Of a stretch of DNA of 64,000 bases, positions 11,464-64,000 are shown piece after piece. Within the stretch, counting starts at the first letter, position 1. Each line of letters starts with the position of its first letter. This DNA is from a virus. A model generated the notes under the pieces. The model was not told the DNA's origin and searched no databases. It was given only the letters and a program-made list of their open reading frames with translations. The translations under genes and the position numbers were made by a program. The stretch is taken from UHGV virus genome UHGV-0141541, one strand, 5' to 3'.

Positions 11464-13023
11464 ATGACTGTTCGGATTGTATCTAACGCAGTTAATGCGC
11501 TTATTTCTGGCGCAGATGACAAGGTAAAGCAAATGGTGCAACAGATGTTGAGCTACGAAGTCGAGACTGGCGACTGGAAGGGCACAAGCACGATGTTCAA
11601 CTGGAGTAAAAACTCGTTCCCTGCTGGCTTTGCCAAGCCTGTAGCGGCGAACTTGAACAAGGCGGGCATCAAATGTGTTCATATCCGCAAAGACAAAACC
11701 CCGGCGCTTGGTAAACCAAATCCTGCGGTTAACCCATTCCCATACAATCCTGATTATGCGTATCAGGATCAGACTGTGGAAACACTGGTTCGAGAGGGAA
11801 TGATGATTGCGCAGATCGCTACTGGTGGCGGGAAATCTAACGTTGCCTGCAAAGCAGCTGCACGTATCGGTCGAATGACATTATTTTTAACAACCCGCTC
11901 TGTTCTGATGTTTCAAATGGCCGAAAACTTCCAGAGATCCATCGACTACCGCGCCGAAAATGGCGAACCGTGGTTAAAAGACCAAAAGGTTGGAGTCATT
12001 GGCTCGGGTGAGTTCCAGGTATCACGACATATCAACGTCGCTACAGTTCAAACTCTTGCAAGTTTCCTCGAAGAACCACCACGCGATGCAACACCAGATA
12101 AGAAAAGCTACCACCTCAAACGTCGGGAGTTGGTGAAACGCTTCCTTTCAAGTGTCTCTCTTCTTATTCTGGAAGAGGCGCATGAGTCTTCAGGCTCAAA
12201 TTTCTATGACATCGCCAGATTATGTGTGAACGCAGACTATCGTCTGGCGCTTACAGCCACGCCGTTCATGAAGGATTCGACGGAAGCCAACATGCGCCTG
12301 ATGGCGGTGGCCGGGCGAATTGAAATTAAAGTCACAGAAAAGTACCTGATTGATCGAGGCATTCTGGCAAAGCCGTACTTCCTTTATCATAAAGTTGCCT
12401 ACAAGCCAGACGAGGCCAGAATCAAGGCCGAACTTGCCAACAAACACCTCAATTTTAGAGTTGGTATGAGCACCGCCTACCAAAAGGCTTATCAGTTGGG
12501 GATCGTGTATAATTTGGGACGTAACGAGGCCATTGTTCGCGAAGCATTGCTCTATAAGCAACATTCTCTCAATTGTATGACTCTGGTTCGTCTTAAACGC
12601 CACGGGCAAATCCTGATGGAAATGATGAAAGAGTCCGGCCTTAGAGTTGACTTCATCTATGGGGAATCTAACCAGGCGACAAGGCAAGCAAAGCTGAACA
12701 GTTTAGCGTCTGGAGAAATAGATGTTTTAATAGGCTCGACTATTCTGGATGTCGGTGTTGATGTGCCAAGCGTTGGTGCGGTCATTCTTGCTGGTGGTGG
12801 GAAAGCAGAAGTTGAAATGAGGCAGCGTGTCGGTCGTGGCTTACGAGCCAAAAAAAATCAGGCAAACGTGTGTTTTATCACTGATTTCATTGACATTAGC
12901 AACAAATACCTGTTGTCTCACTCTTATGAGCGAAAACACATCATCGACACCACACCTGGCTTTGCAGAAGGTGTATTGCCTATTGATGGAGCATTCGATT
13001 TTGGAGTTCTGAAACGAGATTAG
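11464..13023 (+). CDS. superfamily 2 DExH helicase
   Basis: 519 aa; motif I ATGGGKS, motif II LEEAHE, motif III TATP, motif VI QRVGRGLR. Confidence 0.8.
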   Translation: MTVRIVSNAVNALISGADDKVKQMVQQMLSYEVETGDWKGTSTMFNWSKNSFPAGFAKPVAANLNKAGIKCVHIRKDKTPALGKPNPAVNPFPYNPDYAYQDQTVETLVREGMMIAQIATGGGKSNVACKAAARIGRMTLFLTTRSVLMFQMAENFQRSIDYRAENGEPWLKDQKVGVIGSGEFQVSRHINVATVQTLASFLEEPPRDATPDKKSYHLKRRELVKRFLSSVSLLILEEAHESSGSNFYDIARLCVNADYRLALTATPFMKDSTEANMRLMAVAGRIEIKVTEKYLIDRGILAKPYFLYHKVAYKPDEARIKAELANKHLNFRVGMSTAYQKAYQLGIVYNLGRNEAIVREALLYKQHSLNCMTLVRLKRHGQILMEMMKESGLRVDFIYGESNQATRQAKLNSLASGEIDVLIGSTILDVGVDVPSVGAVILAGGGKAEVEMRQRVGRGLRAKKNQANVCFITDFIDISNKYLLSHSYERKHIIDTTPGFAEGVLPIDGAFDFGVLKRD

Positions 13024-13330: not shown

Positions 13331-13795
13331 ATGAAGTCTCCCATACTGTTCACTTTCTGTTCTAAAACTATCATGAAATACTCGCTTCTCCCTCTACTAA
13401 CGTTACCAGTGTTGATGCTTACCGCGTGCCAATCACGCCCAATATCAATCCATGACGCCAAACCAGCACCGCAGGCCAAAGTGTTCAAGTATCAAAGCGC
13501 AGCGCCAGCTACGTTGGTGGTAATGAGAGACACAGGTTTTGTAGGAGCTGGATGTGATGCTTCCATTTTCATCAACGGCGAAACTGTCGCAAAACTGGCT
13601 ACAGGCGAAAAAGCGACTTTCCATTTAAATGCCGGAGAATTAATTGTGGGTGCATCTCTTGAAGGTGCAGGTTTATGTGCTCTAAACCCCGCTCGTCAAG
13701 AGCGAGAAACGACTCTGAAGAATAGAGACACAAAAGCGTTCAGGGTGTTCACCAGCAATTCTGGTGACATCGACATTCTGCCAACAACTCTGTGA
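13331..13795 (+). CDS. putative lipoprotein
   Basis: 154 aa; RBS GGGAG; signal peptide with lipobox LTAC. Confidence 0.6.
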   Translation: MKSPILFTFCSKTIMKYSLLPLLTLPVLMLTACQSRPISIHDAKPAPQAKVFKYQSAAPATLVVMRDTGFVGAGCDASIFINGETVAKLATGEKATFHLNAGELIVGASLEGAGLCALNPARQERETTLKNRDTKAFRVFTSNSGDIDILPTTL

Positions 13796-13799
13796 TGAC

Positions 13800-14324
13800 A
13801 TGACAACCAAAGATATTACCTACGGTATCCAAGCTGAACTCTGGCCGCGAGATTACACTAACGTTGAAAAACTACTGATGTTCTGGCGCAGAGAACAAAT
13901 TCCTGTAAGGGTCACTCTCGAAGATGGCCAGGCGTTTTGCATGTACGTTTATGGCCTCATGCCATCTCGTAACAAAGTTGACCTTTGCCCAGCCCCTTTT
14001 GACAAAGAAAATCGTATAAGGCTCCCACTTGAACGCATTAGTACAATTGAATCAGGTGTGGTTGACAGTATCGCTCACGATTTCAAAGGTCGACTAACAG
14101 TTCACCCTGATTATGTCGATAATCGGCCATCACGCCGCGATTTTTTTGCAATTTGCAACCAAGCCTACAAAGCAAACAAATCTATAAGGGTGTACATGGC
14201 GGATGGCCGTGAAATTGAGGGGGTGTCAGCAGGCGCAGATGCTTGTCAGGTTACACTACGTGTCGAGAACGGTAGAAAAATAGTTGTTTTGTTCGATTGG
14301 GTTGAACGAATTTTGCCTTTTTGA
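13800..14324 (+). CDS. hypothetical protein
   Basis: ORF track 13764-14324; start moved to MTTKD just after the upstream stop. Confidence 0.5.
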   Translation: MTTKDITYGIQAELWPRDYTNVEKLLMFWRREQIPVRVTLEDGQAFCMYVYGLMPSRNKVDLCPAPFDKENRIRLPLERISTIESGVVDSIAHDFKGRLTVHPDYVDNRPSRRDFFAICNQAYKANKSIRVYMADGREIEGVSAGADACQVTLRVENGRKIVVLFDWVERILPF

Positions 14325-14327
14325 GTT

Positions 14328-14636
14328 ATGAAATCGATATTGTTACCACCATTATTTTTACTTTGCTCAGTTGCGGCAAATGCAATGGACTATAAGCCTG
14401 TCATTCAGTCGCTGATGAATGACGTGTGCTCAACGTCTCAGAATGTATCAGTTTGCATGTATCAATTTTCGGCAGCCGTAAAAGCAGGAAAAGCGATAGG
14501 TGAGAATGTGGAACTGTGTAAGAAAGTGGCAAATGAAGAACGGGCAATGTTGGATTGCGAATCTAGCGAGTCATCGGCACAGTTCGTTGATACGCTATTT
14601 GACACCAATCGTAAGGCTGTAGAGTCTGTTCAATAA
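14328..14636 (+). CDS. small secreted protein (signal peptide)
   Basis: 102 aa; N-terminal hydrophobic signal MKSILLPPLFLLCSVAANA. Confidence 0.5.
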   Translation: MKSILLPPLFLLCSVAANAMDYKPVIQSLMNDVCSTSQNVSVCMYQFSAAVKAGKAIGENVELCKKVANEERAMLDCESSESSAQFVDTLFDTNRKAVESVQ

Positions 14637-14648
14637 ATCTATAAGGTT

Positions 14649-14680
14649 AATAACCGGCTAAGTCCGGTTATTATTTTTCA
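14649..14680 (+). terminator. intrinsic terminator
   Basis: hairpin AACCGG-CTAAGT-CCGGTT followed by T-run ATTATTTTT after the 14328-14636 gene. Confidence 0.5.
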
Positions 14681-14826
14681 TATCACTTCTTTATATCTAC
14701 AAATCAAATAACCTAAATATATATAAGGTCTAAAGCCGCAATCGATTATTTATTTAGGGAACACCTTCGACGATCTCGCTTTTATTTCTAGGACTTTCAT
14801 CCCTGCAAAAAATTTTAAAAAAACAC

Positions 14827-14854
14827 TTGCAATCTTTTTTCGCGTATCGATAAT
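14827..14854 (+). promoter_or_regulatory. sigma70-like promoter of AT-rich cassette
   Basis: TTGCAA - 16 bp - GATAAT about 65 bp upstream of the 14920 start codon; read by eye, not scored. Confidence 0.35.
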
Positions 14855-14919
14855 TGAACTCGTCGAAAGCGAAGACGCTAACGACAATAAATTTTAAATT
14901 TACATAAGGAAAAATTATC

Positions 14920-15570
14920 ATGGCTAACATTATCATTTCTAAAAAGTCCATCATTGAAGCTGCATCTATTGTATCCGACGAGCTGCGCGAAAAAGCAGAT
15001 CTGGCAACTCAAACATATAACGAACATTATAAATATGGTACGCACACTAAAGCAGACAAAGCAAATATGCAAGCTGCGACCACTAAACTTGCTTACTTCA
15101 TCAACAACGTCGTAAACGCAGTAGAAGACGAAAAATTATGCTCTGTTTTCTACTATGCGATTAAAGCAAGCAAACAAGCGCCAGAAGTATTTTTCCGTGA
15201 TGCAATGACTAATAGTTATTCTCTGGAAAAACTGGTTTATCTGGTTAAATCAATTAAATCTGGTAAATGCGTTTATTCCATCGCTGATATGTCAGGATCT
15301 CGTGTATTCGCTTTAATCGATATGATTAACGACGAGATCGACACGTTCACCAATGGCGCTGTTTTCGATTTAATGAATGAAGCTAAAAAAGCGTGTGAAA
15401 TTAAATTGGACGCTGGCTATACTCAAGCCAACCAGTTGATCAATCTTTGCGAACGTCTCGGACTTGTTGAAAAAGTCAAAGGAGCTGGGAGCGCCAAAGC
15501 TGGTACGCAGCAATATCGCTTCATTAAAAATGATTTCTACAATTATTTAGCTGATGCTTTCAAAGCGTAA
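14920..15570 (+). CDS. hypothetical protein (AT-rich accessory cassette gene 1)
   Basis: 216 aa; strong RBS AGGA; markedly AT-rich relative to surrounding genes; no motif recognised. Confidence 0.6.
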   Translation: MANIIISKKSIIEAASIVSDELREKADLATQTYNEHYKYGTHTKADKANMQAATTKLAYFINNVVNAVEDEKLCSVFYYAIKASKQAPEVFFRDAMTNSYSLEKLVYLVKSIKSGKCVYSIADMSGSRVFALIDMINDEIDTFTNGAVFDLMNEAKKACEIKLDAGYTQANQLINLCERLGLVEKVKGAGSAKAGTQQYRFIKNDFYNYLADAFKA

Positions 15571-20895: not shown

Positions 20896-21501
20896 TTAGT
20901 TGTTCAGATAAACATTTGGAACACGGACGTAGAACTTACTGTTACCGGTAAGTTCCAGAGTAATGTTAATGTCATTACCATTGTCTAGTGTAGCCGTCGC
21001 TCTATAGAACTTATCAGTTACCTTTTCGTCAATATTAACCTTGATGCATTTCGCCGCAGTAGAACCATTATGCTCTTTCAGAATAGTTGTCACGACAGGA
21101 CATGCGGCTTCCTCAATGACGCCATCTTCCTGTTTCGGTATTACAATGAAGAATACGTAAGCCAGCAAGGTAACGACTATAATAAATGGCAGTCTACTGC
21201 TCTTTGTTATAGTCGCACGCTTCCATAGGTAGATTGGTATGAAAACTATTCCCCATAAAATAGCAGGTGGCTCATAGCCGGATTCCGAAATCGCCATTCT
21301 GTCAGCCACTAATAATCCGATGGCAGCTAAACTTCCAATTAATACAGCATAATTTGCATACTCTTCGTTCGGAATGCCGAAGCAAATTGGAATAAAAGCT
21401 AAAATCCACGCATAAGTGTTATTCAAAGGTTTTTTTTGTTGGTTATTGGTTTCCATCACATCCATCTCATCACTTAAATTACTTGTATATATTATCAACA
21501 T
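20896..21501 (-). CDS. multi-pass membrane protein of unknown function
   Basis: 201 aa; several hydrophobic segments; lies in an AT-rich stretch; start uncertain (M1 or MDVMET). Confidence 0.5.
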   Translation of the reverse strand: MLIIYTSNLSDEMDVMETNNQQKKPLNNTYAWILAFIPICFGIPNEEYANYAVLIGSLAAIGLLVADRMAISESGYEPPAILWGIVFIPIYLWKRATITKSSRLPFIIVVTLLAYVFFIVIPKQEDGVIEEAACPVVTTILKEHNGSTAAKCIKVNIDEKVTDKFYRATATLDNGNDINITLELTGNSKFYVRVPNVYLNN

Positions 21502-21577
21502 TTAACAAACATAACCTAAACACACAGCAGATATAGCATTACAAACTCATTGTGAAAACCATTATCATAGGAAACGA

Positions 21578-21763
21578 TTAGATGAGATGGTCTAATTCAT
21601 CATCTATCATTGCTTTGACGCTGGAGTCATTCACTCCATATTTATTTATGAGCTGTTTCAGCTCTGGCGAAAACTGAAGGTAGATATCGTGGGCGTTTTT
21701 CACTGTAGGTTCAACGCCGCGCATTTCAAGCGCCTTTAGTAGATATGAGTCTTCTTTAAGCAT
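21578..21763 (-). CDS. hypothetical small protein
   Basis: 61 aa ORF, AT-rich region. Confidence 0.35.
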   Translation of the reverse strand: MLKEDSYLLKALEMRGVEPTVKNAHDIYLQFSPELKQLINKYGVNDSSVKAMIDDELDHLI

Positions 21764-21799
21764 AAATTCTCCGTTATCTAGTATGAAGCGATTGCCGGA

Positions 21800-22099
21800 T
21801 TACCATTGCCAGCACTCAAGCCCTTCAACGACCGGTGCGCCACAATCAAAATGTACAGAGTCAAAGCCTACATCAAGTACTTTCTGAATGTTCGCAATCG
21901 CGCCCTCGGATATACCGTATCGACGCAACTCATCTTTCCAGTCATCGTCCTGTAACCCGGCGTGGACAATGCAACCGTACTCAATTTGTGAAACCCAATC
22001 CAGCTCATTGCTTGCGATCATGAATCGGCAAGCATCTTCCTCTGATGTATGAGATGAGCTGATCAATGCCACCTGGTAGGCTTGGGTAATGTTCAACAT
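21800..22099 (-). CDS. hypothetical protein
   Basis: ORF track 21800-22108; start moved to MLNITQ (RBS GGAG); motif family 1 copy at 22113-22145. Confidence 0.45.
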   Translation of the reverse strand: MLNITQAYQVALISSSHTSEEDACRFMIASNELDWVSQIEYGCIVHAGLQDDDWKDELRRYGISEGAIANIQKVLDVGFDSVHFDCGAPVVEGLECWQW

Positions 22100-54297: not shown

Positions 54298-54298
54298 T

Positions 54299-54830
54299 AT
54301 GCTGTCAGCGGTGAAATGTATGCTATCAGCGGCTATTTTCCTGAAAAGTATGCTGTGAACGGTTAAAAGATATGCTACCAGCGGTATAGTGAGATAAACG
54401 TATGCTGTGAGCGGTTAATCATCTATCACCACTCAATGCTCTGTCATACCTCCCCAGTGGTTACTAACCTCGAAGAGTGCATTCCATAAAGGTTTGCGCT
54501 CACTAACATTCTATTGCCATTGCGCTGATTGCTTGTAGTGAAAGGCATTTATTGCCTGCTGCTCTCTGATAGAACGTATGCTGTCAGCGGTGTTTTATTG
54601 AGGAATTTTTGTTTGGATATGCTATCAGCGGTAATTAATGGTATATGTCAGACCTTCGTATGCTGCCAGCGGTAATTTTGTTCTGGTTATACCCATACCG
54701 GGACATATTATTCATGCAATGTCTTAAGTATGCTGTCAGCGGTAAAAAATCGAGTAAAGTATGCTGTGAGCGGTGAGATAGACTCTCGATATGCTATCAG
54801 CGGCAGTTGATTGTGTATGCTGTCAGCGGT
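54299..54830. repeat. iteron array downstream of rep (about 12 copies of TATGCTGYCAGCGGT)
   Basis: copies at 54299, 54319, 54349, 54371, 54401, 54577, 54617, 54658, 54729, 54760, 54789 and 54816, irregularly spaced. Confidence 0.8.
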
Positions 54831-54877
54831 GACGACTATGAAATATGACTGCGGCACGTGCCGCAGTCAGTTTGCAT

Positions 54878-55090
54878 TTAGTGTATTTTCTTCAACAGAC
54901 CCCAAAGTGTTCCGGCTTTTGTAGTCAGTTTTCCTGTTTCTGGATCGTACATACGCCATTCACGCCGCTGGTGGACGATATACCCATCTTCACGTTCCAG
55001 ACGCTCAAGAATGCCAGGCTGCTTGAAACCCTTAGCACGCCAGTATCCGGTTGTTTTCTCGATTTCCAGACCTGCCAGTGTTAATGCCAT
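54878..55090 (-). CDS. hypothetical small protein
   Basis: 70 aa; followed by perfect palindrome GACTGCGGCAC/GTGCCGCAGTC at 54848-54869. Confidence 0.4.
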   Translation of the reverse strand: MALTLAGLEIEKTTGYWRAKGFKQPGILERLEREDGYIVHQRREWRMYDPETGKLTTKAGTLWGLLKKIH

Positions 55091-55425
55091 TATCCAACCT
55101 CCTTGCAGTCATCGAAAAGGTAGCTTTGCTGAGAAGCGTGAACGCCATAGAAGCCCTTGTATTTGTTGTATACGAAGTGGTCTTCTCCGACGCCGGTTAA
55201 TTTGCCATTACGGTTTGTGAGATATGGGGATGACAATACTCGATCGTCTCGCACAACATAGAACTGGTCGCCGCTGTCTACGACCATCGCGCCATATGGT
55301 GCTTTTATGACGTCGGTAAGAGCGCCATTCTTAACGTCGGCTACAGACATTTCACACTGATAAACAGTGGTGTCGGCCACAACGATCGAAGAAAGGAACA
55401 ACAGCGCGAATGGGATGGCCTTCAT
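55090..55425 (-). CDS. secreted protein (signal peptide)
   Basis: 111 aa; N-terminal MKAIPFALLFLSSIVVA; RBS GAGGTG. Confidence 0.5.
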   Translation of the reverse strand: MKAIPFALLFLSSIVVADTTVYQCEMSVADVKNGALTDVIKAPYGAMVVDSGDQFYVVRDDRVLSSPYLTNRNGKLTGVGEDHFVYNKYKGFYGVHASQQSYLFDDCKEVG

Positions 55426-55601
55426 GCTGCCACCTCTTTGATTACATCAAATGCTGAATTAAATACGAGCACGATAGCCAAAGCGTTTATGACTACGTCG
55501 TTCACCGGGGAAAAGACTTTACGAATGACACCAGTGAAAATGCAGTCGATGACAAAAGCTATTGACACGATGAGTAACAAGTATTCAATAAAAATCTTCA
55601 T
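55422..55601 (-). CDS. small hydrophobic membrane protein (not in ORF track, 59 aa)
   Basis: translated by hand: MKIFIEYLLLIVSIAFVIDCIFTGVIRKVFSPVNDVVINALAIVLVFNSAFDVIKEVAA; stop overlaps next start (ATGA); no clear RBS. Confidence 0.4.
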   Translation of the reverse strand: MKIFIEYLLLIVSIAFVIDCIFTGVIRKVFSPVNDVVINALAIVLVFNSAFDVIKEVAA

Positions 55602-55640
55602 GATAGGTAGATACTAACTTATATAAATTTTACTGTAAAC

Positions 55641-55916
55641 TCACTCAAAAGTGCTGATGCTTAAAATACGCTCAAGATGTGCGGCATCTTCATCACTGAT
55701 TTGTTGAGTCTCTTCTACGTACCAACAGTTGCCGTTATGCCAACAAACACCATCATCATCAATCATCACTGAATCAGCGTCATGACCTGTATATTCAACG
55801 AGAATACGCTGGATCAGCGCGTCAGTTTCTTCGTCGTTAAGGCCATCGGCTTTGACCATAAAAAGCGGAAACACGTCATAGACAGTGCTGGTAACGATTC
55901 GAACTAAAACTCTCAT
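55641..55916 (-). CDS. hypothetical acidic protein
   Basis: 91 aa ORF. Confidence 0.45.
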   Translation of the reverse strand: MRVLVRIVTSTVYDVFPLFMVKADGLNDEETDALIQRILVEYTGHDADSVMIDDDGVCWHNGNCWYVEETQQISDEDAAHLERILSISTFE

Positions 55917-55971
55917 GTGTTTTTCCTTTTGTGGTTAGTGTTTACTTATTTTGTTAGTTATGAATAGGCGA

Positions 55972-56397
55972 TCAATCTTCTTGTTTAGGGAAAAACTGTT
56001 CAATAACTCTGTCAACGGCTGTGTCTATATGGAGTAGATGCCACACAACCATATCTTTGCTTCCCATGCCTTGTGTGAATATCACGTCATACTTACGCCA
56101 TGCGCAGTGGAACCAATATGCTGAGTCATCAATTGGTAAATCCTCTCCCGCCTCTTTGAAGTATTTCAGCAGCATTGCCTGCTCTGCCGTTGGCGTTGGA
56201 CCTATTTCCTGAGCGTACATACGGATGAATCGCTGCCAGTCTGTCTCGTCGGGGGTTGGATCTGGTGGGGTCATTTCTGCGATAGCGTTTCGTAGCTGAT
56301 GCGCCCAATCAGGTTCAGGAAAGCCTTTTGCTACTTCATCATCAATAACATCCAGAGCCACGTTTGCAGCATCGTAGAGTTTCTTAATAGCTGTCAT
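55972..56397 (-). CDS. hypothetical protein
   Basis: 141 aa ORF preceded by motif family 1 copy at 56414-56445. Confidence 0.5.
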   Translation of the reverse strand: MTAIKKLYDAANVALDVIDDEVAKGFPEPDWAHQLRNAIAEMTPPDPTPDETDWQRFIRMYAQEIGPTPTAEQAMLLKYFKEAGEDLPIDDSAYWFHCAWRKYDVIFTQGMGSKDMVVWHLLHIDTAVDRVIEQFFPKQED

Positions 56398-56488
56398 GTT
56401 TTCTTATCCTTTCAAACAAATTGTTTTCTTAATAAGATAATTGCGATAAAAAAGGCGTCCAACTGGACGCCTGAACTTTTTAGGGGAG

Positions 56489-57319
56489 TTATTTCACTGT
56501 AATGAAAGGAGTGTTAGCCCCTTGAGTCATGTACTGCGGTAACTGGCCATTCCATTTATTGATGGCTTCCAGTTCCATAACGTTCGGGTTTTGACGCAGA
56601 GCTTCACCGCGCAGACGAATGGCGTCTGCTTCTGCTTGCGCACGAGCACGGATAGCATCAGCTTCACCATTAGCCTGTTCACGTAGCATATTCGCCTCAG
56701 CTTTACGTTGTTCAACTTCCTGCTGACGTTGCAGAGTACGCTGGTTAGCCGTTACTTTGGCGTTGATCGATTCAATGACGGTTTTTGGGTAATCAGGCTT
56801 TCCAACCCATGACAGGCTCAGTACCTCAATACCAACCGGAGACATCTCTTTCTGAATATCTTTCAGTGCGTTGTCCAGCAATTGTGCCTTACCACCGTCG
56901 ATAAATGAGTCAGTGGTCATACGGCTGGCCAAACGGTTTAGAGAGTCGGCAATTTTCTGACGCAGATCTGATTCGGTGATATCGTCTACGCCTTTGCGAT
57001 AGGTCTGGAACACCGTCGTTACCTTGTCACGATTAACCAGATACGCAACGCCAATTTTGTGACCAATAGCAGTACCGTCACTCATCTGGAATGTGAACGG
57101 CTCGTCGTAGGTCTTCATTTGTTTGAAGGTCGGAAATACGTAAAGTTCGGTGTTAAGACCTGTCCATTGGCGACCAACGCCAACTACTTCACCAATCCCT
57201 TTGTCTTCACCTAATTTGTTTACTTTGATGCCAACGTATCCAGGCTCCACGCGATCACAGCCAGTAAGACCCATTGTGCAAATAGCCGCCAGAGCAACTG
57301 CAAGTAAACCTTTCTTCAT
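56489..57319 (-). CDS. SPFH/band-7 domain lipoprotein
   Basis: 276 aa; lipobox LTGC; C-terminal coiled-coil region typical of prohibitin/HflC-like proteins. Confidence 0.65.
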   Translation of the reverse strand: MKKGLLAVALAAICTMGLTGCDRVEPGYVGIKVNKLGEDKGIGEVVGVGRQWTGLNTELYVFPTFKQMKTYDEPFTFQMSDGTAIGHKIGVAYLVNRDKVTTVFQTYRKGVDDITESDLRQKIADSLNRLASRMTTDSFIDGGKAQLLDNALKDIQKEMSPVGIEVLSLSWVGKPDYPKTVIESINAKVTANQRTLQRQQEVEQRKAEANMLREQANGEADAIRARAQAEADAIRLRGEALRQNPNVMELEAINKWNGQLPQYMTQGANTPFITVK

Positions 57320-57322
57320 TAC

Positions 57323-57523
57323 TTATTTCCCCTTTGCTTTGATTAATGAGTTAATAAATTTACGACCAGCAATAAGACCGATTACAGGAGCACCAAAACC
57401 AACGATAATTCCAAACATGACGGCTAAATCACTCTTGGTAGAAATCAGCGACGGAACCAGTAAACCGTAGATGAGAGCCACTGAAAGGCCTGTGGTTACT
57501 GCCAATAGATAGATTTTGATCAT
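57323..57523 (-). CDS. small two-TM membrane protein
   Basis: 66 aa, two hydrophobic helices, immediately upstream of the SPFH gene. Confidence 0.45.
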   Translation of the reverse strand: MIKIYLLAVTTGLSVALIYGLLVPSLISTKSDLAVMFGIIVGFGAPVIGLIAGRKFINSLIKAKGK

Positions 57524-57615
57524 GTGTTTTCCTATGTGGTTGTTATGCGAAAATAATAAGTAAGTACTTATATATTTTCAAGAGATAAAAAAGGCGTCCT
57601 GTGGACGCCTTGTGT

Positions 57616-58689
57616 TTACTCTTCTACTGACTCGGTGGGGGTGTCTTTTGCTCTCCGGTCGTCGATTGCCTGCAAAGCCGCAATGATTTCAGCTAGTGGC
57701 TTCTCCCGATACATCTCGACGATCTGTGATTTGGTGTATTTCTTGTCGCCAATTTCTACTCGACCGCTTGCGTTCTTTGGCAGGTATCCTTCATCCAGCA
57801 TGTACTCGACGAGCGATTCGATAACGTCGAGGCCACGAGTAGGATCGAAGTAGAATTTCCAGGTGCACTTGCCATAAGGTGGTGCAACTTTGTTTTTGAT
57901 GCACTCTGCGCCTACGTCCTGACCGATCTTCTCTTTACCATCCTTCATCACCGATGCACCGAGACGGATGCGCACAGAAGCGTAAAACTTCGGCGAATCG
58001 CCACCTGGTGACGTCGTAGGGTCGCCAAACATTACACCGATTTTTGTGCGAACCTGATTCAAGAAGATGATGCAGGCGTTGTATTTGCGTGCCCACAAAG
58101 CCAGAGTGGGGAAGTTCGCACTCGTCGCACGAGCCAGCGCCGTATTGTCATTCATGTTTAGCTGATCTTTGTCTTTGGCAGTGCCTTCAGCCATCTTTTC
58201 GAACTTCTCGGCTTTGGAGTTCGGAACCATAGACGCAAGTGAGTCCGCCACGATACAGATAGGTGCTGATTCAGGGATAAGCTCTTCATCACGTACCAAT
58301 TTAAGTATTGTGCCGATCAACTCCACAGAGTCTTCGAAGGTATCTGGCTGCTTGTATACCCACTGGCCGTCATCTTCATCTGCGTTCAGACCATTGGCGA
58401 CAGCCAGGCCAACGTCAAAACTGTTCTCATGATCGAGGAATACCGCCAGACCATCTTGTTTCTGAGCGGAGATCATTGCTGCCGTTGCCAAAAAGGTTTT
58501 CCCCGCGCTTGGCGGCCCGAATACTTCTACGATACGACCACATGGGAAACCGCCATCGTAACGACCGGAAATCGCTTTGTTTAACGGAGGAAAGCCTGTG
58601 TCAATCCAATGAGTTACTTTCTGTATTTCGTCGTTGCTACCGATTTTCTTTTTCAGAGCAAGTGCCAGTGCGGATTTTCCTTTTGCCAT
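57616..58689 (-). CDS. RecA-family recombinase
   Basis: 357 aa; GRIVEVFGPPSAGKT Walker A in RecA-like context, Walker B region IVADSL. Confidence 0.75.
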   Translation of the reverse strand: MAKGKSALALALKKKIGSNDEIQKVTHWIDTGFPPLNKAISGRYDGGFPCGRIVEVFGPPSAGKTFLATAAMISAQKQDGLAVFLDHENSFDVGLAVANGLNADEDDGQWVYKQPDTFEDSVELIGTILKLVRDEELIPESAPICIVADSLASMVPNSKAEKFEKMAEGTAKDKDQLNMNDNTALARATSANFPTLALWARKYNACIIFLNQVRTKIGVMFGDPTTSPGGDSPKFYASVRIRLGASVMKDGKEKIGQDVGAECIKNKVAPPYGKCTWKFYFDPTRGLDVIESLVEYMLDEGYLPKNASGRVEIGDKKYTKSQIVEMYREKPLAEIIAALQAIDDRRAKDTPTESVEE

Positions 58690-58691
58690 GA

Positions 58692-58964
58692 TCAGGCTCC
58701 TTTTGTTTCGTTGATTCGTTTTAAAGCGGCGGATTCGTCGAATACAATCGCATCGTGGTTAAGGAGTCTGGATACACGAGCGAGGATTTTTACGACCTGC
58801 TCGCTGACTAATCCAAACTCGCGATCTGTCGCTTTCATTCCGGCAGCGCCTAGAATTGACGGCAGCGCGATGACAGCGTACTCACCGTGATAAAAGACAA
58901 TCTCCTTTGCCAGTTGGGCAGGGGTGGTTGTAGCGCCATTAATAATTGATTTAAGCATTAGCAA
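58692..58964 (-). CDS. hypothetical small protein
   Basis: 90 aa; short overlaps with flanking FEN and RecA-like genes. Confidence 0.4.
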   Translation of the reverse strand: MLMLKSIINGATTTPAQLAKEIVFYHGEYAVIALPSILGAAGMKATDREFGLVSEQVVKILARVSRLLNHDAIVFDESAALKRINETKGA

Positions 58965-59902
58965 TACCTTTCGAATGGAAGAACAAACACTTCAAGGTCT
59001 TCAAGGAACGAACGGAAATTCAGCTCGTAGCACAGTTGCTCGAATGCTTTCACGTCACGATTGCCTTTGATTGTTTCGATTTCGGTAGGCGGAAACTTCG
59101 TCTCAATCAGGTTCATTAGCGTGATGTTTCTCTTGAACGCTTCGAGCATTCGACAGCCTGTTTTCTCGTTGAAGGCATTCTTCGCTAGTTTGTTGAAGGC
59201 GGTTTTATGGCGTCCTTTGTCAACCACTATTGAGCCGTCGTTAATGCCGCGCACCATCGTTGCGACGCTTCCCCATTCATGCAGCAGCTCTTTCGCACCG
59301 CCAGCGCCAATGCCACCAACACCGCTAATGTTGTCCGAGTTATCGCCTTGTAATGCTTTTGCTTCCAAAAATGCGCGAGGCGTGGCGAATCCTGTCAGCT
59401 CCGCAAATTGCTCAAAATTAACCTGCTTGTTTTTGGCGTCTTCACGCAGGCTTACCCAGCTTACGTTTTCACGAACTAACTGAAGCCAGTCGCTATCGCC
59501 TGTTAACAGATAGATGTGTTCAACGGTTGGCTGCGGTGCCATGCGGGATACCAGCAGCCCGGCCAGATCATCCGCTTCTGCATCTTTTGCAATGATTTGG
59601 TTAACACCAAGCGCGGTCATCATTTTGAGGATGTATGGCTTCTGGACAGAAAAGCCTTCCTTCATCTTTTTCATATCAGGATCGTCGTCGCGATTTGCTT
59701 TGTAGTCCGGGTAAAAGTCGCGACGCTTGTCACTAAATCCATCCCAAAGAATCATAGGTCGGGCATGGAGGATGGAGGCATAACGACGGACGTTCTTAAC
59801 AAAGCCGAAAGCAGCCTGAACTTCCATTTCGCCGTTGTGCAATTTGTCAGATTGTTGGTGGTAATAACCTAGGCTATTGCCATCTACGAAGAGATAATTC
59901 AC
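58958..59902 (-). CDS. 5'-3' exonuclease / flap endonuclease (FEN family)
   Basis: 314 aa; LFVDGNSL, TGDSDWLQL, helix-3-turn-helix GVGGIGAGGAKELL. Confidence 0.85.
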   Translation of the reverse strand: MNYLFVDGNSLGYYHQQSDKLHNGEMEVQAAFGFVKNVRRYASILHARPMILWDGFSDKRRDFYPDYKANRDDDPDMKKMKEGFSVQKPYILKMMTALGVNQIIAKDAEADDLAGLLVSRMAPQPTVEHIYLLTGDSDWLQLVRENVSWVSLREDAKNKQVNFEQFAELTGFATPRAFLEAKALQGDNSDNISGVGGIGAGGAKELLHEWGSVATMVRGINDGSIVVDKGRHKTAFNKLAKNAFNEKTGCRMLEAFKRNITLMNLIETKFPPTEIETIKGNRDVKAFEQLCYELNFRSFLEDLEVFVLPFERYC

Positions 59903-59963
59903 CGGTGCATTCCTTCCAAAAAAGTAAGGCGTCCGTAGACGCCTTACTGGTCACGTAATGGGA

Positions 59964-60992
59964 TTACAGAGAGTCAAGCTCTCTCAGTAGATCATCCAGA
60001 CCTTCATCTTCCGTCGCAGATGCGGCTGCTACAGATGTCGCTGCGACTGCTTCAGACTCTTTGACTGATACGGCAACGGCAGCGGAACTTGCCTCTGGTT
60101 TAAATTCAGTTTCAACGGCTCGGAGGATTTCTTCATCAACCAGACTGGTTGGTTCAGAAGCTGGGGTGTGAGCGGTTGCTACAGCAGTCGCACCCTCCGT
60201 ATGACCAGTGACAGAGCCAAATCCAGGCAGTGCCGCGGTCGATGTTTTCGCGGTAGAGGAAATTGCTGGTGCAGATGCAGAGGCAGTTGGTGCTGCGATG
60301 CCAATCAGACGACCCATAGTGCGAACTGTCGAGAGAAGACGAGTTTCATCAGCCTGATTTGCGTATGCGATCAGGTCATGCTGGGTATTCCAGAATTTAT
60401 CTTCGATATCGCCTTTGTAGACTTTACGCTTAGGCGAGACGTCATATTTGGTATCGCGACCAGAACCAGTACGTTTAATCAGGAATGCGTAGCCTTCCTC
60501 TTTGCTCAGTGGATTACCGATATCATCAGCGATGTCTTCGGTGATTGCTTTGCAGATATCATCGAATACAGTGGAAGGCAGTTCGATTAACTGGCATTTC
60601 TCTGCATCGGCGAAATCCTCACGAGCTGAAAGAATGCCGTTGACCAGGTAGCGAGGCGTGGCACGCATTTGACCGATGCGTTCTTCCATTGCTTTGTTAC
60701 CCTTGTGACGAGCGCGACCTTCCATCACCATTTCGCATAGCTGACAAGCGCGACCGTGAGTATGTTGCTCACAAATATAAGCGTTGGTTGCTTCTTTACC
60801 TTCCTCGTTCTGATACTTAACGTAGTGCATACCGAAAGTCTGGAAGAACTTACCGTTTGGGTCGTCTTTATTCGGGAAGATGCGGATATAGTTGACGCCG
60901 TCTTTTAAGCGAGTCAGATCAACGTTGTTACCACGTTTGGCGGCAATGTCTTCACGAGTTTTGTTAAGCAAATCAAGTAATGTCTTAGACAT
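59964..60992 (-). CDS. single-stranded DNA-binding protein, T4 gp32-like (tentative)
   Basis: 342 aa; His/Cys zinc site CEQHTHGRACQLC, Ala/Ser/Thr-rich linker, acidic C-terminal tail EDEGLDDLLRELDSL. Confidence 0.45.
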   Translation of the reverse strand: MSKTLLDLLNKTREDIAAKRGNNVDLTRLKDGVNYIRIFPNKDDPNGKFFQTFGMHYVKYQNEEGKEATNAYICEQHTHGRACQLCEMVMEGRARHKGNKAMEERIGQMRATPRYLVNGILSAREDFADAEKCQLIELPSTVFDDICKAITEDIADDIGNPLSKEEGYAFLIKRTGSGRDTKYDVSPKRKVYKGDIEDKFWNTQHDLIAYANQADETRLLSTVRTMGRLIGIAAPTASASAPAISSTAKTSTAALPGFGSVTGHTEGATAVATAHTPASEPTSLVDEEILRAVETEFKPEASSAAVAVSVKESEAVAATSVAAASATEDEGLDDLLRELDSL

Positions 60993-61109
60993 GTGTTTCT
61001 CCTTGTTGTGATTTGGCCGATGGCGCTATGCGCGTTGGGCTTTCGTTCATTCGTGGCTCTTTCGAGCTGTTAAATGATAGATCAGTACTTACTTATTATC
61101 TATCAAAAA

Positions 61110-61541
61110 TCAACGGGGAGTAATAAAGCGTTCAGAGCCTAATCGCTCTAATTCAACGATGGCCATCTTTGACGCCTGAACGATCATGTCTCGGCGATGC
61201 GAAAAGGCGGCGACAGCATGTTTGTATATGTCTGCGATGTGCCGTGCTTCATCCAACTTCTGCCGTTTAGACAGATACTGTGGGTTTGTTTTAACCTTAG
61301 CGTCCAGTACAGATTCGTTGAACTTAATGCCATTCATACTCAAGTTCTTACGCTCTGTGTCGTATAGCTTTGCTTCAACAGCTTCAAGGTTAAGTTTTGC
61401 TTCTGCGACACTTCTTTCTGCATGGGCGAGTTTTGAGCCATATTCCATCAACAGGCGGGGTTGTCTACGCCAGACTTCTTCCAGATTGTCTCGGTCAAAC
61501 TCGAGATCGGACATGATTTTTTCGTATATATTGGTGCTCAT
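61110..61541 (-). CDS. hypothetical protein, possibly UvsY-like recombination mediator
   Basis: 143 aa helical protein next to SSB-like and RecA-like genes; weak resemblance to T4 UvsY central region. Confidence 0.4.
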   Translation of the reverse strand: MSTNIYEKIMSDLEFDRDNLEEVWRRQPRLLMEYGSKLAHAERSVAEAKLNLEAVEAKLYDTERKNLSMNGIKFNESVLDAKVKTNPQYLSKRQKLDEARHIADIYKHAVAAFSHRRDMIVQASKMAIVELERLGSERFITPR

Positions 61542-61785
61542 TTTGATAGATTCTCACTTATCATGATGTATTGATTATAGAGCTTAAATTAACGCTAATC
61601 CAAGATAGACCGTTATGCTATCTGCTCGAACAACCATTTCTTAGGGCTTGTTAATTGCAGGAGTTTCTCCTATTGTGTTCGTGGATTTAATCGAAAGAAA
61701 TATGGGTTTTGAAAAGGATAGAATCTTCATGTTTCCGCACAGCATTTATCATTAATTATTCAAATTAAAAGGAAATATTATCCTC

Positions 61786-62376
61786 ATGTTTGATATTTAT
61801 AATTTATTAAAGCAAATAGCAGAGAACACGAAACCTGACCATTCTGCTATTTGGATTGCTGTAATATCTTCAATATCAGCTATTGCAGGCGCTGCTATTG
61901 GTGCATATTTGTTATATCGAGGCACAAACGAACAAATTAATTCTGCTGCTGCTATTGAAGATAAAAAATTAAAAGCAACTATAATTACCGCAGAAAGACT
62001 TCGTTGGCTTCAAGAGCTAAGGTCAAGAAGTAGTGAGTTTTATGCGAATCTCGATATGAATTACAACTTATTAAAACGACCGATAAATCCGCAGGCAATC
62101 CCGACATATCAACAAGCTGGGGACGAACTGGCGAAAATTGTAATGATTCAATGCAATCAGATAATTGTATTACTTAATCCTAAAAAAACTCATCAGCAAA
62201 CTATTTTTAATAAATGTAATGATGCACTTAAATTTTTCATGGAATGCGTCGAAGAAAAAAATAATGGTAATCTGAACTTTGATGATTCCAAGTATGCGGA
62301 AATAAAAAACGATTACTTTAATGCTTTAACTGAAATAGGTATTGAAACTTGGAAGCAGATAAAAGAGTTAAGTTGA
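61786..62376 (+). CDS. hypothetical membrane-anchored protein (AT-rich accessory gene)
   Basis: 196 aa; N-terminal TM segment AIWIAVISSISAIAGAAIGAYLLY; only plus-strand gene in this region; AT-rich. Confidence 0.5.
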   Translation: MFDIYNLLKQIAENTKPDHSAIWIAVISSISAIAGAAIGAYLLYRGTNEQINSAAAIEDKKLKATIITAERLRWLQELRSRSSEFYANLDMNYNLLKRPINPQAIPTYQQAGDELAKIVMIQCNQIIVLLNPKKTHQQTIFNKCNDALKFFMECVEEKNNGNLNFDDSKYAEIKNDYFNALTEIGIETWKQIKELS

Positions 62377-62437
62377 TGTCTTATTGGCGGAAGATAATTA
62401 ATAACTATCACTACACGGAATCTGCAATTAATAAATG

Positions 62438-62462
62438 AAACCCGCGATTGGCGGGTTTTTTA
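62438..62462 (+). terminator. intrinsic terminator
   Basis: AACCCGC-GATTG-GCGGGTT hairpin followed by TTTTTATTT. Confidence 0.6.
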
Positions 62463-62594
62463 TTTATGCGACTTTCTTACCCAAGATGTTGGATAGAGTG
62501 ACTCTGGTCTGGCGTTTCAGCCTGTACTATCTCACATCGCCAATCTTGTTTACTTTCATAAACTCTTTGGCCTCCTTTATGGTGTTTTCTTTAT

Positions 62595-64000
62595 TCATTT
62601 GCTAATAGTCTCCGCTACCTCTGCCAGAATTGCTTCCAGCTTTTCGCCTTCCTCTGGGCGAAAGTACAAAATATTCGGGTTAAATCCGTAGAAAACAGTC
62701 ACATCCAGCTCCGGCAGATACTCTTTGCGTCCAACCAGGTCGGATGGTTTGATCTTGTTGTTGAAGAGCGACGTTGCCCGGCTGCCACACGTCAGCACAT
62801 AGGTCGGACGCACCAGATTGATCTCTTCACGCATAAAGTCGGTGAACTGGCCGATCTCGTCTTTGGTGTAGTCTTTTTCTTTGTCTTTAACCTTCTTGCA
62901 AACGCCTGTGACATAGAGATCGCCCATGCGTAAATCTCCAGCCGTCAATAGCTTGGCCTTAAAATCGTCGTATCCGTTCTCCATAAAGTAACCGGTTCGA
63001 GCATCATTGCCGTTCGCATTGTCCAGAATGATCATGATTTTCGGCTTAATACCAATGCTGGGGCGGATTAGTTCATCACCTAAGCCCATTTCAGCCGCCA
63101 TCCGTGTCATGAGCACGTTAATCTCAGCCGAACGTTTGGGGTTCATCTCAAACGGACGTGAGGCTTTAACTGCATCTATGACAAGGTTTCCCATCAATTC
63201 AGCCTGGTCGCGGAGGCGCTCTGGATCAGTTGCTGGCAGACTACCTGGCTCGATGGATGCAAACGCCCCTACTTTTTGCAGCGATTCGCGCACTCGACTA
63301 TTACAGGCACGTTTCTCGACAGCTTCTTCGAATTGCGCAAGTGACTCGAATTTGCCGCCAACCTTTTCTCGCGCTCTCATGATGGCCTGGCAGCCATTCT
63401 CAGAACACCCCTTCACAGCAGAGAAGGGCGCATACAGCACCTGGCTGCCATCTTCAAGCGTGCGGATCTCGATTCGGTTAGATGACACGTTAACGTCTGG
63501 TGGCAATACGCGAATACCATAGGTCAGCGCATCTTTAACCAGCCCCTGGTGTTTATCTTCGCCAAGAATAGTGAGAGCAGCAGCGAAAAACTCTGCGGGA
63601 TAATGAGTTTTCAACCACATAGATTGATAACTGATTAAGGAGTAAGCAACAGAGTGTGATTTGTTGAACTGGTAGGCACCATTCTTTTCGAATGCGGTCC
63701 AGATCTCCTTCGCTTTCATCTCTGATAGCCCTGGATGTGACGCTGTAACGCGTACTGCGTTTATAGGTAGTTTTGCACCGAACTCAAGTGCCTCTTCGAC
63801 AGTTTTCAGAGTTCCGTCTTCGCATTTAAAATGTTCCGCACGGTGAATGCGCTGTGTAGTGCCATCTTCCAGCTCAACGTCGATCCAGCCAGCTTGAGCC
63901 TGAACGATGAACTTCTCACCCATGCTCTTCATTTTCTCCATGTCTTTTTTGCCGATCGCTTTACGAACGCCGTCAGCTTCAGCCATTGTGAAGCCGGCAA
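62595..64000 (-). CDS. dnaE: DNA polymerase III alpha (DnaE-type), C-terminal part; runs off the window edge
   Basis: FNKSHSVAYSLISYQSMWLKTHYPAEFFAAAL closely matches the DnaE motif; ORF has no in-window start, so 5' partial; C-terminal ~170 aa unassigned. Confidence 0.8.
   Translation of the reverse strand, partial: AGFTMAEADGVRKAIGKKDMEKMKSMGEKFIVQAQAGWIDVELEDGTTQRIHRAEHFKCEDGTLKTVEEALEFGAKLPINAVRVTASHPGLSEMKAKEIWTAFEKNGAYQFNKSHSVAYSLISYQSMWLKTHYPAEFFAAALTILGEDKHQGLVKDALTYGIRVLPPDVNVSSNRIEIRTLEDGSQVLYAPFSAVKGCSENGCQAIMRAREKVGGKFESLAQFEEAVEKRACNSRVRESLQKVGAFASIEPGSLPATDPERLRDQAELMGNLVIDAVKASRPFEMNPKRSAEINVLMTRMAAEMGLGDELIRPSIGIKPKIMIILDNANGNDARTGYFMENGYDDFKAKLLTAGDLRMGDLYVTGVCKKVKDKEKDYTKDEIGQFTDFMREEINLVRPTYVLTCGSRATSLFNNKIKPSDLVGRKEYLPELDVTVFYGFNPNILYFRPEEGEKLEAILAEVAETISK

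Follow-up and report, generated by a model that had tools for sequence, protein, structure and literature searches.

An orphan moron encoding a bitopic membrane protein in a cargo slot of SSU5/pHCM2-type phage-plasmids, and its possible role in lysogen protection

The virus genome UHGV-0141541 was analysed over a stretch of 64,000 nucleotides (nt), hereafter the window, which, as judged from its sequence, is part of an Escherichia coli SSU5/pHCM2-type phage-plasmid. The subject of the analysis is an open reading frame (ORF) located at 61786–62376 on the plus strand (Table 1), starting with ATG and encoding a protein of 196 amino acids (aa), hereafter the 196-aa protein. The gene stands between a UvsY-like recombination mediator gene and dnaE, and its flanks match the phages SSU5, PhiR41_1 and Cyrano as well as many IncFIB-type plasmids. 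From 54298 to 64000, the long ORFs other than this one all lie on the minus strand. They encode a Band_7 protein, a RecA-like recombinase, a 5′-3′ exonuclease, a gp32-like single-stranded-DNA-binding protein, the UvsY-like protein and DnaE. Thus, the description given in the initial annotation, of a sole plus-strand gene amid minus-strand replication genes, holds for about 54.3–64 kb. The AT-richness noticed at the same time is also borne out. The G+C content (GC) of the gene is 0.328, as compared with a window mean of 0.462 (standard deviation 0.035 in 600-nt windows; z = -3.8 for the gene), and GC at third codon positions is 0.249 versus 0.43–0.53 in the neighbouring genes. The stretch occupied by the gene has the lowest GC found anywhere in the 64-kb window.

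Several observations concern the coding status of this ORF. An AAGGAA ribosome-binding site can be read in the sequence 11 nt 5′ of the start codon, and the alignment shows a start position common to all aligned homologues. The ratio of non-synonymous to synonymous substitution rates (dN/dS) is 0.21 with respect to the copy in pHCM2, and 0.07–0.14 with respect to the copies of Vibrio and Pseudidiomarina. Because of these dN/dS values, the ORF is a functional protein-coding gene under purifying selection.

The gene belongs to an inserted module that also comprises its upstream region. Comparison with empty-site relatives places the left edge of this module at about 61580 and its right edge at about 62430 or at 62602. 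The module has a GC of 0.331 and is 100% identical to NZ_CP107145.1. No convincing direct repeats were found around it as signatures of insertion. The 245-nt upstream region is 90.6% identical to that of pHCM2, the gene itself 86.8% and the flanking UvsY-like core gene 78.2%. The upstream region is therefore conserved above both the gene and the core neighbour, which suggests a regulatory role. With relaxed criteria, the only sigma-70-like promoter candidates have 8/12 matches, the best being TTGTTA-17-TATTGT at 61648–61676. The conserved region also contains a small palindrome, AGATAG-N9-CTATCT, at 61603–61623. In addition, the gene is enclosed by a 13-nt inverted repeat (61648–61660 and 62422–62434, 12/13 complementary), one arm of which lies at the candidate promoter and the other shortly before the terminator; in AT-rich sequence, this repeat may be due to chance. 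As for structured RNAs, no Rfam family matched upstream or 3′ of the gene. A sub-threshold match to the Rfam Trp_leader family corresponds to the terminator hairpin and was discarded.

Downstream of the gene, an intrinsic terminator consists of a stem of 9 bp, 5 of them G-C pairs, with a T-run 3′ of it. The hairpin folds with an energy of -18.1 kcal/mol (z = -3.9), equalled by 0/200 shuffled sequences. The strong terminator of the initial annotation is thus confirmed, with the refinement that it is not private to the gene. Indeed, it is kept in SSU5 although the cargo of SSU5 differs, and it lies directly past the stop codon of a convergent minus-strand DUF7740 gene. For these two reasons, the terminator is probably bidirectional and shared, and would probably be part of the framework of the slot. 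The DUF7740 gene itself is reduced here to a remnant that joins its first ~7 codons to the 38 at its 3′ end and contains an in-frame stop. It is intact in pHCM2 and SSU5 (141–147 aa), and about 293 nt have been deleted in the window relative to pHCM2. On the other side of the module, the UvsY-like gene is a core gene of the SSU5-type phage-plasmids that adjoins every slot variant examined.

The distribution of the gene was studied by a megablast survey of the flanking sequence against PLSDB, which returned 768 matching plasmids from Klebsiella, Escherichia, Enterobacter, Yersinia, Salmonella and other genera. The gene is present in 45–46 of these 768 plasmids, so that about 94% do not have it. 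Among the carriers, 11 E. coli plasmids encode a 100% identical protein; the others, mainly pHCM2-like Salmonella plasmids, have copies that are ~84% identical. At the level of complete E. coli genomes, 16/5426 carry the gene, always on a plasmid and always with at least 99.8% identity. A tblastn search of the 196-aa protein against 50,697 phage records, SSU5 included, found no copy. The initial annotation had proposed to look at presence or absence across relatives, and would have given up the moron interpretation for a gene universally conserved with a defined structural or replication role. The presence of the gene is in fact variable, and sites without it exist: in pR9-658-1 (NZ_CP107165.1) and pE16EC0562-7 (L018/L019), only a spacer of about 95 nt separates the flanks.

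In other relatives (L003, L017, L020–L024), different cargo occupies the same site, always on the plus strand, against the direction of the flanking operon. SSU5 and pXH988_2 have a pair of genes encoding proteins of 74–78 and 187–192 aa, which match PDC-M06A and PDC-M06B, a candidate system of PADLOC (E = 1e-21 and 1e-32). The slot of Yersinia pestis pFra has a similarly sized pair known by its annotation (a hypothetical protein and a "DNA-binding protein"), outside the PADLOC scan. By tblastn, 343 plasmid records contain PDC-M06B-like genes; some of these genes are at other sites or in plasmids of other types. The cargo of pG749_2 is a DUF4365 protein matching the restriction endonuclease (REase) domain of an Argonaute-associated PADLOC model (E = 1.5e-13). 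A gene annotated as DUF4365-containing is found at the same slot in a plasmid of Salmonella Tennessee, and DUF4365-like genes occur in 38 plasmid records. Finally, one relative has a lone "DNA-binding protein" gene as slot cargo, and Klebsiella relatives have CspG. From these sequence comparisons, the UvsY-like/dnaE interval of SSU5-supergroup phage-plasmids is a hotspot for plus-strand cargo, the types of cargo being mutually exclusive. That different cargo types have a common terminator is shown for the present window and SSU5. The slot is newly delineated here; the passages of a survey of SSU5-type elements used in this work (bioRxiv 10.1101/2025.09.12.675607) contain no mention of it.

Altogether, absence from ~94% of collinear relatives, empty sites, atypical GC, opposite strand, terminator and conserved upstream region uphold the moron part of the interpretation first put forward; the other part, superinfection exclusion or abortive infection, is more tentative and is discussed below. 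The gene is a genuine, well-delimited orphan moron. There is little doubt that it is a horizontally acquired accessory transcription unit residing in a cargo slot of the phage-plasmid.

Table 1. Features of the cargo slot and of the 196-aa protein gene (positions in the window)
Feature	Position	Strand	Basis
UvsY-like recombination mediator gene (143 aa), left flank of the slot	61110..61541	-	ORF; "UvsY recombination mediator" annotation in Escherichia phage Cyrano
Conserved non-coding upstream region, presumed promoter/operator	61542..61785	+	Conservation versus pHCM2
Inserted cargo module (upstream region and gene)	61580..62430	+	BLAST break-points versus L018/L019 (empty), L017, L020 and SSU5
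Coding sequence of the 196-aa bitopic membrane protein (phrog_24982)	61786..62376	+	ORF list, PHROG match, alignment, dN/dS
N-terminal tail, residues 1–19, with conserved LLxQIAENT motif; probably periplasmic	61786..61842	+	Alignment; topology variants
Single transmembrane helix, ~residues 20–44	61843..61917	+	Hydropathy scan; AlphaFold2 model
Helical stalk (~45–69) and up-down four-helix bundle (70–195); probably cytoplasmic	61918..62373	+	AlphaFold2 model
Motif codons E70-R-L-R-W-L-Q76	61993..62013	+	Alignments A1 and A2
Intrinsic terminator (stem-loop 62437–62459 and T-run)	62437..62466	+	Folding; conserved in SSU5
DUF7740 pseudogene remnant	62467..62598	-	tblastn of pHCM2 protein versus window; Pfam DUF7740
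dnaE, 3′ part (DNA polymerase III alpha), right flank of the slot, runs off the window	62595..63986	-	ORF and homology

The product of the gene was described in the initial annotation as having one N-terminal transmembrane helix and a helical soluble domain, and the same picture emerges here, with a hydrophobic helix at residues ~20–44 followed by an all-helical domain. The hydropathy scan predicts a single transmembrane helix before the conserved motif in nearly all family members. A full-length AlphaFold2 (AF2) model built with a 24-sequence alignment has a predicted local distance difference test (pLDDT) score of 82. It shows a short N-terminal helix, a continuous helix spanning residues 19–97, inside which the hydrophobic segment is located, and three further helices. 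Prediction of residues 46–196 (pLDDT 91.2, predicted template-modelling score 0.81) gives a clean up-down four-helix bundle, with helices 2–52, 61–84, 90–114 and 122–150 in model numbering. In that model, the first helix exceeds the others by ~25 residues, and this excess corresponds to the stalk. Conservation is concentrated in a motif, ERLRWLQ, which is invariant among 24 closer relatives (alignment A1). Across 51 diverse members (alignment A2), R71 is invariant, and conservation reaches 90% or more at W74, R79, L130, Q137 and W189. Following the order of the helices in the model, these six residues would all be found at the membrane-proximal end of the bundle. The spacing between the transmembrane helix and the motif is 28 residues in most family members.

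The orientation of the protein in the membrane may be deduced from variants within the family. In seven clusters (P0030, P0049, P0057, P0058, P0068, P0071 and P0084), a signal peptide precedes the family transmembrane helix. In six of them, the signal peptide is followed by a segment of ~60 residues with two conserved cysteines (C...QCG.N.I.Q), the second of which is the only one carried by P0071. Two other members have additional membrane segments: P0067 combines a soluble N-terminal domain with one extra transmembrane helix, and P0075 has three extra ones. Furthermore, Lys and Arg residues are usually more numerous on the C-terminal flank of the transmembrane helix. Because of the signal-peptide variants, the variants with extra helices and these Lys/Arg counts, the bundle is placed in the cytoplasm and the short N-terminal tail would be periplasmic. 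The existence of a signal-peptide branch with a periplasmic two-cysteine segment suggests that the outside-facing part is functionally important. One member, P0040 (L032), conflicts with this topology since it has a DUF4062 domain before the transmembrane helix. Its ORF, on a metagenomic contig of 1.3 kb, breaks off within the bundle, and it is probably degenerate or chimeric. The DUF4062 fusion was considered as a clue to function or topology and was given no weight, the ORF being incomplete.

The family as a whole is rare: when 1.84 billion representatives were scanned exhaustively with HMMER, 94 clusters were identified at E <= 1e-3. Use of the 51-member alignment in a profile search brought in no further members and linked no Pfam domain to the family. 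Genomic contexts were studied for homologues of 37–68% identity, all of which reside in mobile elements or islands. In most of these loci, the homologue gene is AT-richer than its surroundings. The Vibrio fluvialis homologue is in a conjugative element with a TrwC relaxase, a coupling protein, AlpA and, nearby, ToxN. A prophage homologue adjoins HipA_2/DUF3037 and AAA_15 ATPase genes. Another homologue directly follows an MmeI_TRD gene in a primase/excisionase islet, another directly precedes a DpnII-MboI-type nuclease, and another lies between GmrSD+HEPN and SNF2+DUF1156 genes. Still others are near HicAB, a WYL protein and a transposase in one case, and near ParDE in another. Overall, restriction, toxin-antitoxin or defence-type genes lie within a few kb in 5/8 independent contexts outside phage-plasmids, a raw count given without statistical background; two further contexts of the eight have toxin-antitoxin pairs or a WYL protein only. 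No neighbouring gene is conserved among the homologue loci, and the gene is therefore viewed as stand-alone. The possibility of a two-gene system was considered and rejected: the genes upstream of the homologues in the Vibrio and prophage loci (206 and 217 aa) are unrelated to each other, and the downstream genes differ.

Considering this location and these associations, it is tentatively proposed, as the favoured reading, that the 196-aa protein is a factor protecting the lysogen against incoming phages at the inner membrane. In this model, a single gene, expressed in the lysogen, would protect it against other phages or mobile DNA. Its product would be a bitopic inner-membrane protein made of a periplasmic N-terminal tail of ~20 residues, a transmembrane helix, a stalk of ~25 residues and a cytoplasmic bundle, and its site of action would be the cytoplasmic side of the inner membrane. 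Two modes of action may be envisaged. In the first one, genome entry would be blocked, as in superinfection exclusion. In the second one, infection would be sensed and then aborted. An Arg/Trp patch under the inner membrane, together with a conserved tail or ectodomain outside, would fit a protein that meets incoming phage components. Alternatively, the same architecture would fit a protein that meets a host membrane protein used by phages. The anti-phage reading finds plausible support, by location, in the cargo of the slot, which is mostly defence-candidate or nuclease-like. It finds plausible support, by association, in the restriction, toxin-antitoxin and defence genes that recur beside distant homologues. 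A wider proposal, possible but held with less confidence, is that the 196-aa protein and its ~94 clusters form an anti-phage family of the single-gene kind that has so far escaped recognition. Its hallmark would be the invariant Arg/Trp patch (ERLRWLQ), and it would be carried in a defence-cargo hotspot of SSU5-type elements, among them pHCM2 of Salmonella Typhi, for which present tools find no defence system.

A number of observations weigh against an anti-phage function. The use of the slot by CspG means that location there is not specific for defence, and PDC-M06 is itself a predicted candidate system only, not a validated one; a literature search on PDC-M06 found no papers. The Pseudidiomarina homologue (L007) sits in an island 3′ of glmS, with small unknown genes around it and no defence gene nearby. 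Upstream of the 196-aa gene, a standard promoter consensus scan passed no site. Database comparisons were negative as well: the 196-aa protein and 51 relatives have no significant Pfam match, PADLOC assigns the protein to 0 families and gives scattered noise only among the 51 relatives, and neither PDB sequence profiles nor Foldseek searches of two AF2 models against PDB and BFVD returned anything significant. Known superinfection-exclusion families (SieA, SieB, Imm, Cor and gp15-like) show no sequence or profile homology to the protein in Pfam and PHROGs. Finally, in the passages of the SSU5 survey used here, a DefenseFinder v1.3 screen is reported to have found no defence system in pHCM2-like phage-plasmids (bioRxiv 10.1101/2025.09.12.675607). 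These phage-plasmids carry the 84%-identical copy of the protein. It follows that the gene is not a catalogued system; inactivity is not shown by that screen. With respect to family assignment, the PHROG match, phrog_24982, is a family of unknown function. Matches to Pfam YfbR-like (E = 0.0045) and DUF5820 were sub-threshold and attributed to chance.

Other functions may be considered. The first alternative, rather unlikely, is that of a lysogenic-conversion or host-physiology factor, which would modulate an inner-membrane process of the host (transport, envelope stress, motility or signalling) in a way that benefits the carrier. Such a role would agree with the presence of the non-defence CspG in the slot and of a FljA-like flagellin repressor in the same phage-plasmid, with the small unknown membrane proteins that are the only neighbours of several homologues, and with the lack of homology to defence families. 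However, the alternative cargo of the slot is mostly defence-candidate or nuclease-like, restriction, toxin-antitoxin and defence genes recur beside distant homologues, and no enzyme or transporter-like domain is found by Pfam in the 196-aa protein.

A role in the life cycle of the element or in competition is improbable. In such a model, the protein would be a membrane-tethered regulator of lysogeny or induction, of replication or partition, or else an anti-defence or lysis-timing factor in some lineages. The absence of the gene from 94% of the relatives, among which the functional phage SSU5, is difficult to reconcile with this idea, as are the homologues carried by conjugative elements, islets and chromosomal islands that have no phage-plasmid backbone. 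Besides, the strand and composition of the gene are opposite to those of the surrounding operon. What speaks for it is the position of the gene amid replication and recombination genes, and its retention at the same site in the E. coli and S. Typhi lineages, which are separated by a synonymous divergence (dS) of ~0.41.

Still less probable is a toxin or addiction protein that would harm the cell and thereby stabilise the element, with control at the RNA level through the conserved 245-nt upstream region. The membrane anchor, the untranslated conserved region and the toxin-antitoxin loci beside some homologues speak for such a system, and one family member has a weak SpoIISA_toxin match (E = 0.0098). 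Nevertheless, this match concerns 1/51 members and is below threshold, there is neither a conserved antitoxin partner nor an Rfam RNA, and, with its 196 aa and its large folded soluble domain, the protein does not resemble type I toxins.

Lastly, a Tar/NarX-type periplasmic four-helix-bundle ligand-binding domain acting as a decoy or receptor-masking module is very improbable: the best structural matches are indeed the Tar, Tsr and PcaY domains (Foldseek probability up to 1.0), the homologue P0042 bears a metagenome label of nitrate/nitrite sensor kinase, discarded as being without domain evidence, and the P0040 fragment has a cytoplasmic-type domain, DUF4062, before the transmembrane helix, but the template-modelling scores of 0.52–0.59 come with E values of at least ~0.03 (best 0.029) and 10–14% identity, as for generic bundle similarity, no Pfam 4HB_MCP match exists in the 196-aa protein or its 51 relatives, no second transmembrane helix follows the bundle, the variants with a signal peptide or with two or four transmembrane helices and the positive-inside counts place the bundle in the cytoplasm, and P0040 is incomplete within the bundle on its 1.3-kb contig.

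Elsewhere in the window, four other features were noted. A FljA-like gene ("repressor of phase-1 flagellin") is found at 13764–14321 on the plus strand (PF03614, E = 1.9e-84); from its sequence, it is a possible lysogenic-conversion gene affecting flagellin expression in the host. Directly 3′ of it, a second low-GC patch (~0.35; 14301–15570, plus strand) contains a 216-aa ORF at 14920–15570 with no Pfam or PADLOC match, and this patch may be another moron. A third low-GC patch (~0.37; 20896–21800, minus strand) contains a 201-aa ORF at 20896–21501, also with no Pfam or PADLOC match. Finally, a helicase of superfamily 2 (SF2; ResIII/DEAD/Helicase_C), encoded at 11464–13023 on the plus strand, has PbeA-like matches in PADLOC (E = 4.7e-23).

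SSU5/pHCM2-type phage-plasmids are widespread in clinical Enterobacteriaceae, including S. Typhi, Shigella sonnei, E. coli, Klebsiella and Y. pestis, and they are usually dismissed as cryptic. The swap-in slot described here offers a concrete place to seek the traits that these elements confer. If the 196-aa protein were protective, it would represent a new, structurally simple family of membrane-anchored defence proteins and would provide the first assigned accessory function for pHCM2. The natural empty-site relatives would then constitute a ready-made comparison system. If it were not protective, the gene would be an ordinary orphan moron.

It is worth comparing the gene and its product with known systems. 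Morons, as conceived by Juhala and Hendrix, and the P2/P4 defence hotspots give the general framework of cargo inserted at recurrent sites. Like the morons of prophages, the gene is self-contained, on the opposite strand, of low GC, followed by a terminator and variably present, with unrelated cargo at the same site; its promoter and its expression in the lysogen, on the other hand, are presumed. A possible functional parallel is SieA of phage P22, a prophage-encoded inner-membrane protein of 162–164 aa that is alone sufficient to exclude related phages and whose conserved motif is predicted to face the cytoplasm (mBio 2024, PMC10883804). The 196-aa protein would likewise be a single-gene inner-membrane protein. 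The two differ in that SieA has three predicted transmembrane helices and no large soluble domain, whereas the 196-aa protein has one such helix and a 150-residue bundle, and no sequence similarity, Pfam or PHROG link connects them. In lactococci, AbiP is a single-gene abortive-infection system, anchored in the membrane by its N-terminus and with a cytoplasmic domain after the anchor. Only 1/51 family members matched the PADLOC AbiP model (E = 0.045), which is noise, and the 196-aa protein has no recognised nucleic-acid-binding domain. With the chemoreceptor ligand-binding domains of Tar (4z9h/4z9i), Tsr (2d4u) and PcaY (6s33), the modelled protein has in common a transmembrane helix that continues into the long first helix of the bundle. 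However, it has neither a following second transmembrane helix nor a signalling domain, and its bundle would be cytoplasmic, whereas theirs is periplasmic; on the basis of the models, the resemblance is a generic four-helix-bundle similarity. Finally, PDC-M06 (A+B) is a two-gene unit (74–78 aa and 187–192 aa) unrelated in sequence to the 196-aa protein, but it is the commonest cargo of the very same slot, at the same site and on the same strand, and has the downstream terminator in common with it.

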